Program-made: the position numbers and the translations under genes | Source: an uncultured Oscillospiraceae bacterium | GTDB taxonomy: Bacteria; Bacillota; Clostridia; Oscillospirales; Oscillospiraceae | Direction: 5' to 3' | NCBI GenBank assembly: GCA_905234005.1 | Contig: CAJOFW010000001.1 | Location: forward strand, 1-36,406 | Length of the DNA: 36,406 bases | The notes under the pieces: generated by a model | Seen by the model: the letters and a program-made list of their open reading frames with translations, nothing else | What the model was told of the DNA's origin: nothing | Database searches by the model: none | In this document: positions 17,422 through 29,310 of the stretch, piece after piece | Layout of the letters: each line of letters begins with the position of its first letter | How positions within the stretch are numbered: the first letter of the stretch is position 1

Positions 17422-19350
17422 ATGCACCGTCTTTCAAAAATTCTGTCCCTTATTCTCGCGCTCACGCTGTGCGCGGGTCTGTTTTCCGCCGCGGCGCTGG
17501 CCGGGGTGGAGGACGTCGCGCTCGACATCGAGGACGTCTCCGACGGCCTTGAGACCGTCCGGGCCGACGGCGAGACCGTCGTTCCCGGCGAGGACGCCGT
17601 CGTCACGGACGGCGCGTCCGTGACCGTCGGCGACGCGGAGAAAAACCTCGCCGACATGATGGCGCGGTATCCGCACGGCTCGTACTGGACAAGCTCGTTC
17701 AACGGCGGCACCACCTGCTACGGCTTCGCGAACATGGTGGTGTTCAACGTCTTCGGCTACTCCACCACCAGCGGCCGCACCTACCGCACCTGGGCCTATG
17801 ACGGCTCCAGCTCGAGCGGCATGGTGAAGCTCGGCTCCGTCGCGAAGTGCACCGAGGCGAACGTGCGCGAGCTTTTAAGCCAGGCCATGCCCGGCGACGT
17901 GGTGCAGTTCGACACCTACAACGGCGGCGGCGGCCAGCACAGCAGCGTCATCTCCGCCGTCAGCGAAGACGGCGTGACGATCTACGAGTGCAACTGGTAC
18001 GGCAGCGGCCTCGTCACGAACACCTACCTCACGTTCGCCGAGTTCGCCCGCCGCCAGTACTCCTACTCGTCCGGCGCGCAGATGCGCGGCACGCTCTCGC
18101 TTTTGCGCTCGGACAACTACGACACGTCCGACGGCGGCACGACGGCGCTGTCGATCTACGGCGCGGTCTATCCCGCCGGTACGATCGCCGCCGGGCAGAG
18201 CTTCACGCTCAAGGGCGTGATCGTCTCCGGCTCCCGGCTCACGAGCGTCATCGGCGTCATCACGAACGCCTCCGGCACGCCGGTCATGAACTACAGCACA
18301 AACCCGGACGCCACGACCTACAACATCCAGACCGGCGGTCTCGACAGCGCGTTCCGCTTCGCCACGCTGGCAAACGGCAGCTACACCTACACCGTCACCG
18401 CCTCGAACGCCGAGGAGACGAAAACGCTCATCAGCAGCGTGTTCCACGTCGGCGCGCCCTCGACGTACACGATTCGCTACGACGCAAACGGCGGCGAGAA
18501 CGGGCCGGAAGCCGTCACCAAGGTCTACGGCGAGGACGTCACGATCTCCGACGTCGTCCCGACCCTTCCGGGCTACACGTTCATCTGCTGGGCGGACGAG
18601 TCCGGCGCCGGCACGATGTACGTCGCCGGCGATACATACGTCCTCAACCGCAGCGCGACGCTGGTCGCCATCTGGATACGGGACGACGAGGATCCCCCCG
18701 TACTGCCCACGGATGACCCCGTTCCCACGGATGACCCCGCGCCCACGGATGACCCCGTCCCCACGGACGTGATCGACGACCCCGACCCGGCGGCCGACCC
18801 CGACCCGGCGGGCCTTCTTCCGTTCACGGACGTGCCCGTGACCGCGTCGTACTACCCCGCCGTGAGCTGGGCGTACGAAAACGGCATCGTGAAGGGCACG
18901 AGCGCGACGACCTTCTCCCCCGCCGCCGCCGGTACACGCGGACAGATCGTCCTGATGCTCTACCGTCTCGCCGGCAAGCCCGACGTGACCGGCCTTGACA
19001 ATCCGTTTTCCGACGTGAAGAAGAGCGCGTCGTATTACAAGGCCGTGATCTGGGCGTACCACGAGGGCATCATCAAGGGCTCGTCCCCGACCCGCTTCCG
19101 CCCGAACGAGAGCGTTCCGCGCTGGCAGCTTGTCCTGATGCTCTACCGTCTGGCCGGGAAGCCGGCGGTCAGCGGCGTCGAAAATCCGTTCACGGACGTG
19201 AACCCCGGCGACGTCTACTACAACGCCGTCCTCTGGGCCTACGAGACCGGCGTCACCCTCGGCACGAGCGCGACGACCTTCTCCCCCTGCAGCGACTGTA
19301 TGCGCTACCAGCTCGTCACCTTCCTGAGCCGCTGCGGCGCTCTCCTCTGA
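17422..19350 (+). CDS. secreted SLH-anchored protein with papain-like (CHAP/NlpC-P60-type) domain and a Listeria-Bacteroides repeat
   Basis: Signal peptide. Cys...His pair (TTCYGFANMV ... GGGGQHSSVI). YTIRYDANGG...GYTFICW repeat. PTDDP linker. Three C-terminal SLH modules (FTDV...YY.AV.WAY). Confidence 0.8.
   Translation: MHRLSKILSLILALTLCAGLFSAAALAGVEDVALDIEDVSDGLETVRADGETVVPGEDAVVTDGASVTVGDAEKNLADMMARYPHGSYWTSSFNGGTTCYGFANMVVFNVFGYSTTSGRTYRTWAYDGSSSSGMVKLGSVAKCTEANVRELLSQAMPGDVVQFDTYNGGGGQHSSVISAVSEDGVTIYECNWYGSGLVTNTYLTFAEFARRQYSYSSGAQMRGTLSLLRSDNYDTSDGGTTALSIYGAVYPAGTIAAGQSFTLKGVIVSGSRLTSVIGVITNASGTPVMNYSTNPDATTYNIQTGGLDSAFRFATLANGSYTYTVTASNAEETKTLISSVFHVGAPSTYTIRYDANGGENGPEAVTKVYGEDVTISDVVPTLPGYTFICWADESGAGTMYVAGDTYVLNRSATLVAIWIRDDEDPPVLPTDDPVPTDDPAPTDDPVPTDVIDDPDPAADPDPAGLLPFTDVPVTASYYPAVSWAYENGIVKGTSATTFSPAAAGTRGQIVLMLYRLAGKPDVTGLDNPFSDVKKSASYYKAVIWAYHEGIIKGSSPTRFRPNESVPRWQLVLMLYRLAGKPAVSGVENPFTDVNPGDVYYNAVLWAYETGVTLGTSATTFSPCSDCMRYQLVTFLSRCGALL
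18707..18769 (+). repeat. in-frame 18-bp tandem repeat (3.5 units) encoding a PTDDP(V/A) linker
   Basis: CCCACGGATGACCCCGNN repeated at 18707, 18725 and 18743, with a partial unit at 18761. Confidence 0.9.
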
Positions 19351-22461: not shown

Positions 22462-24054
22462 ATGGATCGGTATGAACGAAAACGGAAGAGGGACGAGGCG
22501 CTGGCCGCGAGGGAGGCGCTGCGGGAGGAGAAGCTGCGCGACCGGCGCGGCAATCGCCGCCGCCGCAGAGCCGCGAAAAAGGCCGCGAAGATCAAGCGCC
22601 GGCGTGAAAAACGCGAGGCGCGGCGGGAGCGCCGCCGCCGGCGGGGCACGTCCGTCCGCTTCAAGATCGCGGCGGCGTTCTCTGGCTTCACGGCGCTTTT
22701 GCTTCTTCTCATCAACGTCTACCCCGTGCTCGTGACGCGGGATCTCGTGTTCGAGACGAAAAAGAGCGCCCTGCAGTCGCAGGGGCTTGTGATATCAAGC
22801 TCCCTCTCGGCGCTGGACGGTCTCACGCCCGAGGCCGTCGCCCAGGTCATGGAGCTGCTCGACGTGACGCCGGTGACGCGCATCCTCGTCACCGACGCGG
22901 GCGGGCGCGTGCTCTACGACACGTCGGAGCAGGAGGACACGCTGGGCCGCTACGCCATGCTGTCGGAGATCGCCGTCGCCCTCGAGGGCAAATCCGTGTT
23001 CTCCTGCCGCTACACCGGCAACGCGTTCGCGAGCCGCGCCGCCGTGCCGGTCGTATCCGGCGGCGTCGCGCTCGGGGCGGTGTACCTCTACGAAAACGAC
23101 GCCGGGCAGGGCGAGATCATCCGCCTTCTCCAGCGCGATATGCGCACGATATCCGCGGTCGCGGCGGGCGTGGGCTTCGTCGTCATCTTCGTGATCTCCT
23201 CGACGCTCACAAGCCGCATCAAGCGCCTGACCGCCGCCGTCGGCGTCGTCAGCTCCGGCGACTACGCCTACCGCATCCCGGTGCGGGGCGGCGACGAGAT
23301 CGCGAAGCTCTCGAGCGAGTTCAACGTCCTGACCGGCCGCCTCGAGAGCACGGAGGAGGCGCGCCGCCGGTTCGTGTCCGACGCGTCGCATGAGCTGCGC
23401 ACCCCCCTCGCGGCGATACGGCTTCTGTCCGACAGCATCACCCAGTCGGACGACATGGACGTGGAGACCATGCGGGAGTTCGCCTCCGACATCGGCAGCG
23501 AGGCCGACCGCCTCCAGCGCATCACGGAGAAGCTCATGAACCTCACAAAGCTCGACTCCGGCGTGAGCCAGACGACAAAGGAGCGCGTGGATATGAAGCT
23601 CGTGGCCGAACGGGCGCTGCACCTTCTCAGCCCGCTGGCCACGGCGCAGCGTGTGACCATCCGCACCGATCTCGGCGAGGGCTGTATCATCCGGGCCTCC
23701 GCCGACGACCTCTACCAGATCATCTTCAACCTCGTCGAAAACGGCATCAAGTACAACGTCGCCGGCGGCTTCGTGCTCCTGCGGCTCCGCCGGGAGAAGA
23801 CACGCGCCGTCATGACCGTGTCCGACACCGGCATCGGCATCCCCGAGGCCGACCTCGACCACATCTTCGACCGCTTCTATCGCGTGGACAAGGCCCGCTC
23901 CCGCGCCTCCGGCGGCAGCGGACTCGGCCTCGCCATCGTCCACGAGGCCGTCCGCGCAAACGGCGGCACGATCGCCGTGTCCCGCACCAGCCGGGGCGGC
24001 ACGGCGTTCACGGTCACATTCCCCATCAGCCGCAGGAGGGACAGAGGCACATGA
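22462..24054 (+). CDS. sensor histidine kinase with Arg/Lys-rich N-terminal extension
   Basis: H-box SDASHELRTPL, N-box FNLVENGIKYN, G-boxes DTGIGI and GGSGLGLAIV. The first ~62 aa are highly basic. Confidence 0.9.
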   Translation: MDRYERKRKRDEALAAREALREEKLRDRRGNRRRRRAAKKAAKIKRRREKREARRERRRRRGTSVRFKIAAAFSGFTALLLLLINVYPVLVTRDLVFETKKSALQSQGLVISSSLSALDGLTPEAVAQVMELLDVTPVTRILVTDAGGRVLYDTSEQEDTLGRYAMLSEIAVALEGKSVFSCRYTGNAFASRAAVPVVSGGVALGAVYLYENDAGQGEIIRLLQRDMRTISAVAAGVGFVVIFVISSTLTSRIKRLTAAVGVVSSGDYAYRIPVRGGDEIAKLSSEFNVLTGRLESTEEARRRFVSDASHELRTPLAAIRLLSDSITQSDDMDVETMREFASDIGSEADRLQRITEKLMNLTKLDSGVSQTTKERVDMKLVAERALHLLSPLATAQRVTIRTDLGEGCIIRASADDLYQIIFNLVENGIKYNVAGGFVLLRLRREKTRAVMTVSDTGIGIPEADLDHIFDRFYRVDKARSRASGGSGLGLAIVHEAVRANGGTIAVSRTSRGGTAFTVTFPISRRRDRGT

Positions 24055-25439
24055 AAAAAACCGCCGCCATCGCATGGCTTCTGGCCCTGCTTGTCACGCT
24101 GAGCGCCTGCGGCGTCCCGGCCCTGCCCGACCTTGCCGACGTGCGGGCATTTGTCGCCCGGGTCACGTTTACGCGGTCGTTTCCGTTCGTCGTCCTCGCC
24201 GAGGCGGACGAGCCGGAGGCGACGGTGTCCGTGTACCGCCTCGCCGCGTCGGGGAGCGGCAGCCTGATCGCGTGTGAGACGTTCCCCGCCTCCGACCCGC
24301 GGACGCAGGATTTAAGCGGCCTCATCGCCCTGCTCGCCGCCCCCGCCGGGACGGAGGAGCTCTCGTGCGCCCTGCCCGACGGCGTGACCGTCGAGGACTG
24401 GCGGCTCGAGGGCGGCGTCGTGAGCCTCACGCTCTCGCCGGCATTTCTCGAGCTTGGCGATATGCGCCGGTCGGCGGCGGCGTTCTGCGCCGTGCTGACG
24501 CTCTGCCAGCTCGACGGCGTGGAGGCCGTCGCGGTCGTGTCCGGCGGGCAGACCGTGTTTCCCTACCTCACGCCCGACGACGCCGTTCTCACCGACGAGG
24601 AGGGCGACCCGTACACCCGCCGCCTGCGCCTGTACTTCCCCGACAGCGAGGGGCGGTATCTCATCAGCGAATACCACACGCTGTCCATCGACGACGACGC
24701 CGACCTCGCCCGCTGCGTCGTGGAGGAGCTGCTGCGCGGCCCGAACAACGCCGAGCTGCGCCCCGCCGTCCCGGCCGGTACGGCGCTGCGCTCCTGCGTC
24801 ACGGCCGACGGGCTGTGCACGGTCGATCTCTCGGCGGCGTTTTACGACAACCGCCCGGATACGGCGCTCGGCGAACGGCTCACCCTCTGCGCCCTCGCAA
24901 ACTCGCTGACGGCGCTGTCCGGCGTGAAGGCCGTGCGCGTGCTCGTGGAGGGCGAGCCGGTCGACGTCTACGTCTACCGCCCGCTGACGGAGCCGCTTGC
25001 CATGTACGACGCCGCCGTCGGCCCCGTCTCGGCCCCGCTCGGGGAGATCGACGCCGATCTGTATCTCGCGCTGCCCGGCCTCGCCGGGGTCACGCCGCTG
25101 CCGTTTCGCGTCAGCGAGGCCGTCGGCGACTCCCTCGCGGAGGCCGTGCTCGACCGCCTCCTCAGCGCCGAGGAGCCGGGATACCCGGCGCTGTTTTCCG
25201 GCAGCGGCACCGTCGCCGGCGTCACCGTCCGGGGCGGCGTGTGCGCCGTGGAGCTGTCGGAGAGCTTTTTCGTGTCCCTGCCCGCCGACGCCGCCCCGCT
25301 CGCCGTGCAGTCGATCGCCGAGACGCTCCGCGCCCTGCCCGGCATCGCCGCCGTCACCTTCTCCGTGAACGGCGCGCCCGCCGTCTACGACGGCATGGAT
25401 TTCTCCGTCTACAATTCTATTAATATCGAGGTGCCATGA
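24051..25439 (+). CDS. GerMN-domain lipoprotein
   Basis: Lipobox LLVTLSAC. Repeated GerM-like segments (LRLYFPDSEGRYL..., VVEELLRGP). Its ATG overlaps the kinase stop (ATGA). Confidence 0.7.
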   Translation: MKKTAAIAWLLALLVTLSACGVPALPDLADVRAFVARVTFTRSFPFVVLAEADEPEATVSVYRLAASGSGSLIACETFPASDPRTQDLSGLIALLAAPAGTEELSCALPDGVTVEDWRLEGGVVSLTLSPAFLELGDMRRSAAAFCAVLTLCQLDGVEAVAVVSGGQTVFPYLTPDDAVLTDEEGDPYTRRLRLYFPDSEGRYLISEYHTLSIDDDADLARCVVEELLRGPNNAELRPAVPAGTALRSCVTADGLCTVDLSAAFYDNRPDTALGERLTLCALANSLTALSGVKAVRVLVEGEPVDVYVYRPLTEPLAMYDAAVGPVSAPLGEIDADLYLALPGLAGVTPLPFRVSEAVGDSLAEAVLDRLLSAEEPGYPALFSGSGTVAGVTVRGGVCAVELSESFFVSLPADAAPLAVQSIAETLRALPGIAAVTFSVNGAPAVYDGMDFSVYNSINIEVP

Positions 25440-27626: not shown

Positions 27627-27889
27627 TATACCGCGAAGGCATTCCGGGACACCCGATCAATCAACATCCACGCGATCGGGGGACAGGCATCCCCCGGTTG
27701 CGCCGCCCTGTTACGCCGTCGTCCCATGCGGGCGGGATTCACCGATTGTTCACAAACTTCTCGCATTTTATTCATGACTTTTCGCCCCGGCTGTTGTATG
27801 ATACAGTCACAAGGGATGAGGGACACATCCCGAGGGTTTTAACAGTTGCTATTTCTCATTTTTTCACTCCTCTCTTCTTTTTTGTGCGA

Positions 27890-27917
27890 AGCCGGACGAC
27901 CGTGAGGCCGTCCGGCT
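27890..27917 (+). terminator. terminator-like hairpin ending the efp-region transcript
   Basis: AGCCGGACG-N10-CGTCCGGCT followed by TTGTG. Confidence 0.55.
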
Positions 27918-27940
27918 TTGTGCCGCTTTGCAAGTCCGGC

Positions 27941-27969
27941 TTGACATCCCGCGCAAAACGGGGTATGAT
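27941..27969 (+). promoter_or_regulatory. sigma-A promoter of the pheA leader
   Basis: TTGACA (27941..27946), 17-nt spacer, TATGAT (27964..27969). Confidence 0.75.
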
Positions 27970-28014
27970 GGCAGGCGAACCGGAACAAAACCGAACGATC
28001 GGAGAAATCACGCC

Positions 28015-28071
28015 ATGACACGCCGCTTTACCGCCGAATTTATCCTCTTTACCTTTGGAAACCGGAGGTAG
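28015..28071 (+). CDS. candidate Phe-rich leader peptide MTRRFTAEFILFTFGNRR
   Basis: GGAGA lies 9 nt upstream. 18 codons with 4 Phe (all TTT). The stop lies 33 nt before a strong terminator preceding pheA. Confidence 0.55.
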   Translation: MTRRFTAEFILFTFGNRR

Positions 28072-28104
28072 AGCGATTTCGGCTGCGGCAACCACGAATC
28101 TCAT

Positions 28105-28145
28105 CGGCTGCGCGGTGGAAATCACCGCGCAGCCGTTTTCTTGTG
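28105..28145 (+). terminator. attenuator terminator upstream of pheA
   Basis: CGGCTGCGCGGTG-GAAAT-CACCGCGCAGCCG (13-bp stem) followed by TTTTCTTGTG, ending about 20 nt before the pheA ATG. Confidence 0.8.
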
Positions 28146-28167
28146 TACAGAAAGGATACTTGACCAC

Positions 28168-29310
28168 ATGGATCTTCAGGAGCTGAACGAACAGATCACC
28201 GCCATCGACGACGAGCTGGCCGCCCTCTTCGCAAAGCGCATGGCGCTGTCGGCGGACGTCGCCCGCGAGAAGGCCGCAAACGGCATCATCACCCCGGACG
28301 TCGCCCTCGAACGCGCCGGACGCATCCGCTTCCGCGAAAACGCCGGCGGGGCGCTGGAGGGCTACGCGGGCGTTCTGTACTCCACGCTGACCGACGTGAG
28401 CCGCAGCTATCAGGCCGCCGTCACGACCGGGGAGAACCCGGTCGCCGCACGCATGGCCGCCGCGATCGAGCACACGCCGAAGCTCTTTCCGGAGAAGGCG
28501 GCCGTCGTCTGCCAGGGCGTCGAGGGGGCGTACTCGCAGATCGCGGCGGAGCTGCTGTTTTCGGAGGCGGAGCTTCAGTTTGTGAGCAGCTTCGAGTCCG
28601 TGTTCGCCGCGATCGACCGGGGCGACGCACGCTACGGCGTGCTGCCGCTCGAGAACAGCACGGCCGGTTCGGTCAACAAAATCTACGACCTCATGATGGA
28701 ATACAACTTCAGCATCGTCCGCTCCGCCCGCATCAAGATCGACCACTGCCTGCTGGCCCGTCCCGGCGCGACGATCGACGGCATCCGCGAGATATACTCC
28801 CACGAGCAGGCGATCAGCCAGTGCGCCGGGTTTCTGCAGTCGCTGCCGAACGTGCGCGTGACCGCCTGCGCCAACACGGCCATGGCCGCGCAGCTCGTGG
28901 CGGAGTCGGGCCGGTCGGACGCGGCGGCGCTGTCGTCGCACAGCTGCGCGGAGCTGTACGGGCTCAAGACGCTCCGCAACTCCGTGCAGGACAAGGGCAA
29001 CAACCACACCCGGTTCATCTGCATCGGCCGGGAGCTGGAGATCTACCCCGGCGCCGACCGGACGAGCATCATGCTCACGACGCCGCACCGCCCCGGCTCG
29101 CTGTACCGGATCATGGCCCGCATCACGGCGCTCGGCGTGAACCTGACTAAGCTCGAGAGCCGCCCCCTGCCCGACCGGGATTTTGAGTTCATGTTCTACT
29201 TCGACCTCGACGCCCCCGTCTACGCCCCCAAGCTCCACCAGCTCATGGCCGACCTCGACAACCTCTGCGAGACCTTCCGCTACCTCGGCAGCTACTCGGA
29301 AATCGTGTGA
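28168..29310 (+). CDS. pheA: bifunctional chorismate mutase / prephenate dehydratase
   Basis: N-terminal chorismate-mutase helices (LNEQITAIDDELAALFAKRMALS). Prephenate-dehydratase domain (GVEGAYSQ, NNHTRF). ACT domain (LTKLESRP). The ATG at 28168 follows AAAGGA. Confidence 0.9.
   Translation: MDLQELNEQITAIDDELAALFAKRMALSADVAREKAANGIITPDVALERAGRIRFRENAGGALEGYAGVLYSTLTDVSRSYQAAVTTGENPVAARMAAAIEHTPKLFPEKAAVVCQGVEGAYSQIAAELLFSEAELQFVSSFESVFAAIDRGDARYGVLPLENSTAGSVNKIYDLMMEYNFSIVRSARIKIDHCLLARPGATIDGIREIYSHEQAISQCAGFLQSLPNVRVTACANTAMAAQLVAESGRSDAAALSSHSCAELYGLKTLRNSVQDKGNNHTRFICIGRELEIYPGADRTSIMLTTPHRPGSLYRIMARITALGVNLTKLESRPLPDRDFEFMFYFDLDAPVYAPKLHQLMADLDNLCETFRYLGSYSEIV

Follow-up and report, generated by a model that had tools for sequence, protein, structure and literature searches.

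A predicted phenylalanine leader-peptide attenuator upstream of pheA in uncultured Oscillospiraceae

On a 36,406-nucleotide (nt) stretch of DNA from an uncultured Oscillospiraceae bacterium (contig CAJOFW010000001.1; this whole stretch is hereafter called the window), the pheA gene for the bifunctional chorismate mutase/prephenate dehydratase was found to be preceded by a leader of ~165 nt, which carries its own promoter, a short open reading frame (ORF) with four phenylalanine (Phe) codons, and an intrinsic terminator. The leader is probably a Phe-responsive, ribosome-mediated leader-peptide attenuator, by which transcription of pheA would be coupled to the supply of charged tRNA-Phe. In silico, the same elements and three alternative pairings of the leader RNA were conserved among 13 distinct leaders, and the choice between the pairings depended on the position of the modelled ribosome. 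The control of aromatic amino-acid genes in Clostridia is generally ascribed to T-boxes, TRAP, or proteins, and if confirmed, a Phe leader-peptide attenuator would be added to the regulatory repertoire of this class.

Organization of the pheA leader

The promoter upstream of the leader matched the consensus at 11 of 12 positions, and transcription would start from it at about position 27976 (for all the features see Table 1). Promoter-like sites numbered two within 3 kb against 0.3 expected. The -35 hexamer TTGACA was unchanged in five aligned leaders, and a TTGAC box was present at equal spacing in the remaining leaders. The Phe codons of the leader ORF, at 28027, 28039, 28048, and 28054, are all UUU. 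In the seven neighbouring genes of the window that were used for codon usage (G+C content of the window, 64%), Phe represents 4.3% of codons, giving a binomial probability of 0.004 for the finding of at least four Phe among 17 codons, and UUU is the non-preferred codon, with 66 TTC against 20 TTT (20 of 86).

The stem of the terminator (28105-28135) consists of 13 Watson-Crick pairs and one G-U pair with a predicted energy of -28.3 kcal/mol, and the folding of a 175-nt leader segment was more stable than that of its shuffled sequences (z = -5.35; none of 200 shuffles was equal). The promoter scan gave no promoter-like site between the terminator and the pheA initiation codon (28143-28167), so that pheA would be expressed only via read-through and the terminator must be conditional. 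The AAAGGA sequence, the probable ribosome-binding site (RBS) of pheA, is located outside the terminator and is not sequestered by it; the sequence GAAAGG is aligned at this position in relatives, too. The orthologues of pheA in Oscillospiraceae are 55-77% identical.

An earlier note on this DNA, made by reading its letters, had described a near-consensus promoter TTGACA-17-TATGAT, the sequence GGAGA-N9-ATG followed by an 18-codon ORF with four TTT Phe codons, and a 13-bp GC terminator followed by UUUUCUU, all of which were recovered at the same positions. The identification of the downstream gene as pheA was also confirmed by its CM_2 and PDT domains, but its start, estimated at about 20 nt after the terminator, is the ATG at 28168, located 25 nt past the U-tract.

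In the minimum-free-energy structures of five leaders, folded without a ribosome, the Phe-codon part of the ORF (segment 1, 28022-28056) formed a long hairpin with the following segment 2 (28065-28090), and the terminator (segments 3:4) followed. The pairs formed in the window were 28022-28026:28086-28090 and 28033-28040:28075-28083, in which the backward pairing formerly spotted by eye is contained. As to the whole family, the consensus 1:2 helices, 28033-28040:28075-28083 and 28047-28056:28065-28073, were paired at 94-97% with compensatory changes in three pairs, while in the terminator 98% of cells were paired and compensatory changes were present in five of the 10 consensus pairs. When the terminator-state conformation was examined as a whole, 96.4% of cells were paired, eight pairs carried compensatory changes, and none of 500 shuffles matched these values, the controls with slid alignment being paired at 40-54%.

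Repeated sequences were noted within these segments. The sequence CGGCUGCG is present twice, in segment 2 (28080-28087) and in the terminator left arm (28105-28112), and ACCGC is present in segment 1 and again in the terminator right arm. The likeness of segments 1 and 4 and of segments 2 and 3 hints at a possible origin of the four-segment switch from a duplicated hairpin.

Table 1. Positions of the features of the pheA leader within the window
Feature	Position	Strand	Description
Sigma-70-type promoter	27941..27969	+	-35 TTGACA (27941-27946), 17-nt spacer, -10 TATGAT (27964-27969)
Shine-Dalgarno (SD) sequence of leader ORF	28001..28005	+	GGAGA, 9 nt ahead of ATG 28015
Leader peptide ORF (pheL-like)	28015..28071	+	MTRRFTAEFILFTFGNRR; 18 codons, UAG stop 28069-28071; homologous ORFs in 12 other distinct leaders
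Segment 1	28022..28056	+	Phe-codon part of ORF; 5' arm of anti-antiterminator hairpin (1:2) in the minimum-free-energy structure
Segment 2	28065..28093	+	Last sense codons through stop and 22 nt beyond; pairs backwards with segment 1 or forwards with terminator
Intrinsic terminator (segments 3:4)	28105..28142	+	Stem 28105-28118:28122-28135, loop AAA, U-tract UUUUCUU (28136-28142)
Antiterminator 3' strand	28106..28125	+	Terminator left arm, loop, and first 4 nt of right arm; pairs with segment 2
Probable RBS of pheA	28152..28157	+	AAAGGA, read from the sequence; role as RBS presumed
pheA	28168..29310	+	Bifunctional chorismate mutase/prephenate dehydratase, 380 amino acids; Pfam CM_2 (E 2e-08) and PDT (E 4.5e-58)

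Conservation of the leader ORF

A protein scan with PheA, in which one genome per GTDB species was included, gave 80 loci (numbered with the prefix L), nearly all from uncultured Oscillospiraceae or Clostridia of animal guts. At the closest four loci (PheA identity, 62-74%), a homologous mini-ORF was found at an equal distance to pheA, encoding the peptides MRFFTAEFRFFTFPETR (L001), MRFFTVEFSFFTFFEER (L002), MRFGFTAEFSFFTFARQK (L003), and MRFSFTANFSFFTFFAKR (L008). From twelve retrievals of further PheA relatives (64-76% identity), eight additional distinct leaders were obtained, and together with the window a set of 13 distinct leaders (15 sequences) was obtained.

The ORFs of this set consist of 17-18 codons including 4-7 Phe codons, and the peptides of the 12 leaders other than that of the window conform to M-R-F-x-F-[TA]-A-E-F-x-x-F-[TY]-F. 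The ATG is invariant and the SD lies 6-10 nt ahead of it, a GGAG-type SD being present within 16 nt upstream in all 15 sequences; conservation extends to the ORF core CTTTACCGCCGAATTTAGCTTCTTTACCTTT, the stop codon is located within AGGUAAAG or AGGUAGAG, and the terminator is located 23-60 nt upstream of pheA. Signs of translation were also apparent, as the sole difference in length is an in-frame 3-nt indel, TTT and TTC are exchanged synonymously, and the Ala codon varies between GCC, GCG, GCA, and GCT. The conservation of a Phe-rich mini-ORF in relatives, proposed beforehand as a check, was thus observed in all 13 distinct leaders.

Compared with L001, L002, L003, and L008, the 5' untranslated region of the window's leader contains 16 inserted nt (the GGCGAACCGGAACAAAACCGAAC region), which fold into a small hairpin (27991-28002) that touches the SD. 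The peptide of this leader lacks the Phe at position 3 that is present in most relatives, and has ILF where most have SFF. The leader of the window is the most eroded functional-looking version in the family.

Alternative pairing of segment 2 as an antiterminator

Segment 2 can also pair forwards with the terminator. In the window, the core antiterminator helix 28073-28087:28111-28125 is paired at 13 of 15 positions; window-specific inner pairs reach 28106, and the stretch 28089-28093 also pairs forwards. The antiterminator was estimated at -17.0 kcal/mol without the four nt of the terminator right arm and at -21.0 kcal/mol with them, and the duplex of both strands at -23.6 kcal/mol compared with -14.5 +/- 3.1 kcal/mol for shuffled sequences. 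All 13 leaders showed the same capacity, the duplex energies ranging from -17.5 to -25.5 kcal/mol and the means of their shuffled sequences from -7 to -15 kcal/mol, and in L008 the antiterminator prevailed even at equilibrium.

The positions of bulges differ among the leaders, and therefore an alignment-free test was employed, in which cognate and non-cognate strands were compared. Cognate strands formed the more stable duplexes (mean, -21.9 versus -18.7 kcal/mol; permutation p = 0.00025), although this p overstates independence because the 13 leaders are related to each other. The outer helix changed jointly on both strands, GAUUUC/GAAAUC in the window being replaced by CGGAUUUC/GAAAUCCG in L095, GGCGC/GCGCC in L008, GGGC/GCCC in L099, and GAUCU/AGAUC in L003. 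Column-wise, the antiterminator was paired at 81-82% in both the MAFFT and the model-fitted alignments, compared with 32-56% upon slides of 1-3 columns. The compensatory changes counted in this way, however, were not above chance, as 19-44 of 500 shuffles reached the observed score; the weakness of this covariation is attributed to the CUGCG:UGCAG core, which barely varies, and to bulges that shift the register between sequences. The antiterminator is thus well supported by conserved complementarity but only moderately by covariation.

It was the antiterminator, matched by eye at 6 of 8 positions, that the earlier note had considered its weak point. The folding gave a stable and conserved alternative of larger size. 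Segment 2 does resemble the terminator left arm, as seen in the CGGCUGCG repeat, but in the productive alternative it is paired with segment 3, by way of the CUGCG/CGCGG core and the loop, and not with segment 4.

Ribosome position and the proposed mechanism

The geometry of the leader was examined with a modelled ribosome, the footprint of which was assumed to extend ~13 nt beyond the A site. A distance of 12-15 nt separates the last Phe codon from the stop codon in every leader, and the antiterminator strand of segment 2 begins 1-4 nt after the stop. With the ribosome at the last Phe codon, segment 2 was left free and the antiterminator retained -15.1 to -28.5 kcal/mol in the 13 leaders, whereas with the ribosome at the stop codon segment 2 was masked and only -4.8 to -11.8 kcal/mol remained; the corresponding values were -18 to -28 kcal/mol for the terminator and -22 to -35 kcal/mol for the segment 1:2 hairpin. 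The leader thus has the features of the trpL/pheL/hisL class, namely, an RBS and start codon of its own, enrichment in Phe, a terminator with no promoter intervening before the gene, and the 2:3 and 1:2 pairings.

In the proposed mechanism, a ribosome would be loaded at the GGAGA/AUG of the transcript from the 27941-27969 promoter and would translate the 18-codon leader. With ample Phe-tRNA, it would reach the UAG at 28069 and cover 28073-28082, the outer 5' strand of the antiterminator; under this condition the terminator at 28105-28135 would form, and transcription would end at the U-tract ahead of pheA. With scarce Phe-tRNA, the ribosome would stall at one of the four UUU codons (28027-28056), so that segment 1 would be masked and 28073-28093 would be free to pair with the emerging 28106-28125 (the terminator left arm, loop, and upper right arm), leading to read-through into pheA. 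When no ribosome is present, segments 1 and 2 would pair and the terminator would form again. The outcome would be set by kinetic competition as the leader is transcribed and folded, and would respond to Phe.

Distribution, origin, and loss of the leader

The gene located 5' of the leader varies, being a zinc-ribbon gene with the gene for EF-P in the window and genes for Rnf subunits or a Dabb-domain protein in relatives, which indicates that the leader belongs with pheA. That the leader is functionally linked to the EF-P gene was rejected on the same ground, since in relatives it stands behind Rnf or other genes. The covariance model constructed from the family (R1) detected a single copy at each leader-bearing locus, always 5' of pheA; neither the rest of the 36-kb window nor the 76 other loci from the first scan gave a further copy. 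A degenerate DNA pattern of the ORF core gave six matches (L081-L086) among metagenome contigs of the Joint Genome Institute, all of which lie in AT-rich coding DNA of unrelated organisms and were rejected as chance matches.

On a neighbour-joining tree of PheA, all the leader-bearing loci fell into one clade, of which the sister clade (L009-L030) was leaderless. Among the sister loci of which the upstream sequence was read, pheA directly follows a coding sequence in L009-L011, L013, and L014; this is a candidate 3' end of the chorismate synthase gene (aroC), suggesting an aro operon. Leaderless loci were also found inside the leader clade, namely L004-L007, L097/L098, and L102. Of these, L005-L007 retain a similar promoter (TTGACA-N17-TATCAT) with an untranslated region of ~30 nt but neither mini-ORF nor terminator, which looks like a clean loss of the attenuator, while L004, L097, and L102 have other upstream arrangements. 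The simplest reading of this distribution would be one origin of the leader followed by its repeated loss.

A truncated leader was noted at L093 (1350-1485), on a single metagenome contig. Promoter and terminator are retained there, together with the end of segment 2 (GGCUGCGGUAAAA), but the SD, the mini-ORF, and most of the outer strand of the antiterminator are missing. This leader scores 38.9 bits compared with 109-142 bits for intact leaders; its sequence predicts either constitutive termination or a decayed element.

Evaluation of the attenuator and its alternatives

Several observations weigh against the attenuator, besides the relatedness of the leaders and the column-wise covariation described above. 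The leader of the window is the poorest of the family, with four Phe codons against 5-7 in relatives and with no Phe doublet. The Phe codons are located inside helices, and part of their nucleotide conservation could therefore be structural. The leaderless relatives within the same clade imply that the leader is dispensable. The public sequencing runs containing this locus are all DNA metagenomes, with no RNA run among them. Finally, transcription and translation are said to be uncoupled in Bacillus subtilis, as reportedly described by Johnson et al. in Nature in 2020.

The structural conservation raises the question of whether the switch is real but set by uncharged tRNA, a protein that binds the RNA, or a small ligand stabilizing the 1:2 hairpin or the antiterminator, the mini-ORF being incidental or only modulatory. 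The RNA structures of the 1:2 hairpin, antiterminator, and terminator are each conserved, the conserved nucleotides of the ORF are in large part paired ones, and T-boxes and protein-mediated attenuation are usual in Firmicutes (PMC2965389). Nevertheless, neither a T-box nor any other relevant Rfam family matched even at E <= 10, the leader of ~165 nt is made of simple hairpins without conserved bulges or junctions that hint at a binding pocket, and regulators of this kind would leave the SD, the ATG, the in-frame indel, the fixed spacing of 12-15 nt, and the specific enrichment in Phe ahead of a Phe-pathway gene unexplained; we regard such a control as quite unlikely. The occurrence of relatives without leader (L004-L007, L097, and L102) and of a terminator without mini-ORF in L093 would rather be in line with the absence of conditional control, in which a leaky constitutive terminator or insulator keeps pheA at a low basal level, and the ORF and pairing are by-products of a U-rich, repeat-containing leader. 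Such a by-product would hardly retain the SD, the ATG, the frame, the positions of Phe and stop, and three exclusive helices at 62-77% PheA identity, and the alternative pairing far surpasses that of shuffled sequences, both of which make this explanation very improbable.

The last alternative concerns the peptide itself. The nascent chain (F-T-A-E-F...F-T-F) might be an arrest peptide, sensing free Phe or another signal as TnaC senses tryptophan, and not the shortage of charged tRNA-Phe, possibly with the opposite sign of regulation. Arrest peptides that sense amino acids are known (PMC8429421), and the family also shows conservation at non-Phe positions (Thr/Ala, Ala, Glu); these same positions, however, accept substitutions (V for A, N or G for E, and A for T), and the conservation of the ACC GCC GAA codons is accounted for by the pairing of these bases with UUCGGCUGCGG(U) in segment 2. 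In addition, it would make no physiological sense for an end product to induce a gene of its own biosynthesis, and 17-18 residues are short for a sensor in the exit tunnel. Taken together, arrest by the peptide appears hardly credible, and control by the translating ribosome through its position on the Phe codons remains the preferred reading.

Comparison with known attenuators

Screening of the window by cmscan against the 4227 families of Rfam 15 gave nothing at the gathering score. Within 27850-28250, only two chance-level matches to unrelated families were found at E <= 10, and none to a T-box (presumably RF00230), Phe_leader (which we take to be RF01859), or leu/phe leader; nor was any T-box or other Rfam element found within 3 kb of pheA in the 20 related loci L001-L020. 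A T-box was excluded on these grounds, and the leader does not belong to the Phe or leu/phe leader families already in Rfam. Like a T-box leader, it represents a 5' terminator/antiterminator switch answering in effect to tRNA charging, but it is only ~165 nt long, has no specifier loop, T-box sequence, or Stem I platform, and the sensor would be the translating ribosome.

The closest known system is pheL-pheA of Escherichia coli and other gammaproteobacteria. The E. coli pheL peptide consists of 15 amino acids, compared with 17-18 in the present family, and ends in an F-F-T-F-P-like motif, in which the peptides of L001 and L090 nearly end as well. In both systems, the regulated gene encodes the same bifunctional enzyme and a Phe-rich short ORF is combined with the 1:2/2:3/3:4 logic (PMC3082878). 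The likeness to E. coli pheL-pheA, already proposed in the earlier note, is supported by the conserved leaders and the conserved antiterminator. The two systems differ, however, in phylum, and no sequence or structure homology is detectable (no Rfam match at E <= 10). In addition, the Phe codons here are spaced (F-x-F...F-x-x-F-x-F, with doublets or one triplet at most) instead of forming a run of seven, the 3' strand of the antiterminator crosses the terminator loop into the right arm, and a frameshift-prone CCC_UGA ending is absent. Altogether, the leader is a new sequence family of a known attenuator class, with the same proposed mechanism as E. coli pheL-pheA.

Leader-peptide attenuation has precedents in Firmicutes. 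A Firmicute leader of this type, leu/phe of Lactococcus, is registered as an Rfam family. His leader-peptide attenuators have been described in the Bacillus cereus group, Peptostreptococcaceae, and Erysipelotrichales (PMC9413887, PMC2965389), a Leu leader-peptide attenuator in Streptococcus (PMC5314783), and uORFC-13-1 with Phe codons upstream of aroF in Acholeplasma (PMC8632094), while ribosome-mediated transcription attenuation was demonstrated experimentally for bmrCD in B. subtilis (PMC4191407). The His, Leu, leu/phe, and aroF leaders of Firmicutes and Mollicutes share with the present one a short ORF with codons of the end product, alternative hairpins, and an intrinsic terminator, and the Acholeplasma motif, moreover, the combination of Phe codons with an aromatic-pathway gene. 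They differ in the amino acid or the gene (his, leuA, or aroF instead of pheA), the sequence family, and the lineage, which here is Oscillospiraceae of Clostridia. Outside Proteobacteria, pheL was listed only for Bacteroides and Desulfobacterium in a survey of 2010 (PMC3082878), and full-text literature searches yielded no paper in which a Phe leader peptide is said to precede pheA in Clostridia. The supposition that leader-peptide attenuation as such is unusual for Firmicutes therefore held only in part, the His, Leu, and aroF leaders having been described already, but a pheL-type leader before pheA in Clostridia was not found described.

The mechanism is a textbook one, and the advance lies in its distribution and evolution and not in the principle. 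The compact RNA family of ~150 nt, new with respect to Rfam 15, could serve to annotate the regulation of pheA and an unannotated gene of 17-18 codons in gut Oscillospiraceae. The family provides a natural experimental series, composed of intact leaders having 4-7 Phe codons, a truncated one, and several cases of loss. It would also be a test case for whether ribosome-polymerase coupling, reported to be weak in B. subtilis, is strong enough in other Firmicutes to allow classical attenuation. A more speculative extension is that a pheL-type attenuator evolved independently and is confined to one Oscillospiraceae clade, and that in addition the terminated leader RNA of ~165 nt, which would be abundant, and the conserved peptide of 17-18 amino acids have functions in trans, as reported for the leader RNA and peptide rnTrpL/peTrpL of Sinorhizobium (PMC7298713, PMC7968998); we consider this combination improbable. 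If it were true, a pheL-type attenuator in one clade would imply a transcription-translation coupling tight enough for the position of the ribosome to set the choice of the terminator.

Other features of the window

A small transcript may be specified by the intergenic DNA at 27774-27925 (+ strand), which separates the zinc-ribbon gene from the promoter of the pheA leader. A promoter-like sequence ATGACT-17-TATGAT is present at 27774-27802, followed by a 5' hairpin, a single-stranded CU-rich sequence UCACUCCUCUCUUCUUUUUU of anti-Shine-Dalgarno-like appearance, and a strong hairpin at 27884-27923 with a weak U-tract. The folding z-score of this region was -2.98, and no match was obtained in Rfam. 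The element could be a small RNA or merely the terminator of the upstream gene.

The source organism is known from metagenomes only. The window also encodes a surface protein with SLH domain and a GerM-like (Germane) sporulation/germination protein (17422-19350 and 24051-25439), which as context genes fit a spore-forming Gram-positive bacterium, in agreement with the placement in Oscillospiraceae from the relatives of PheA.

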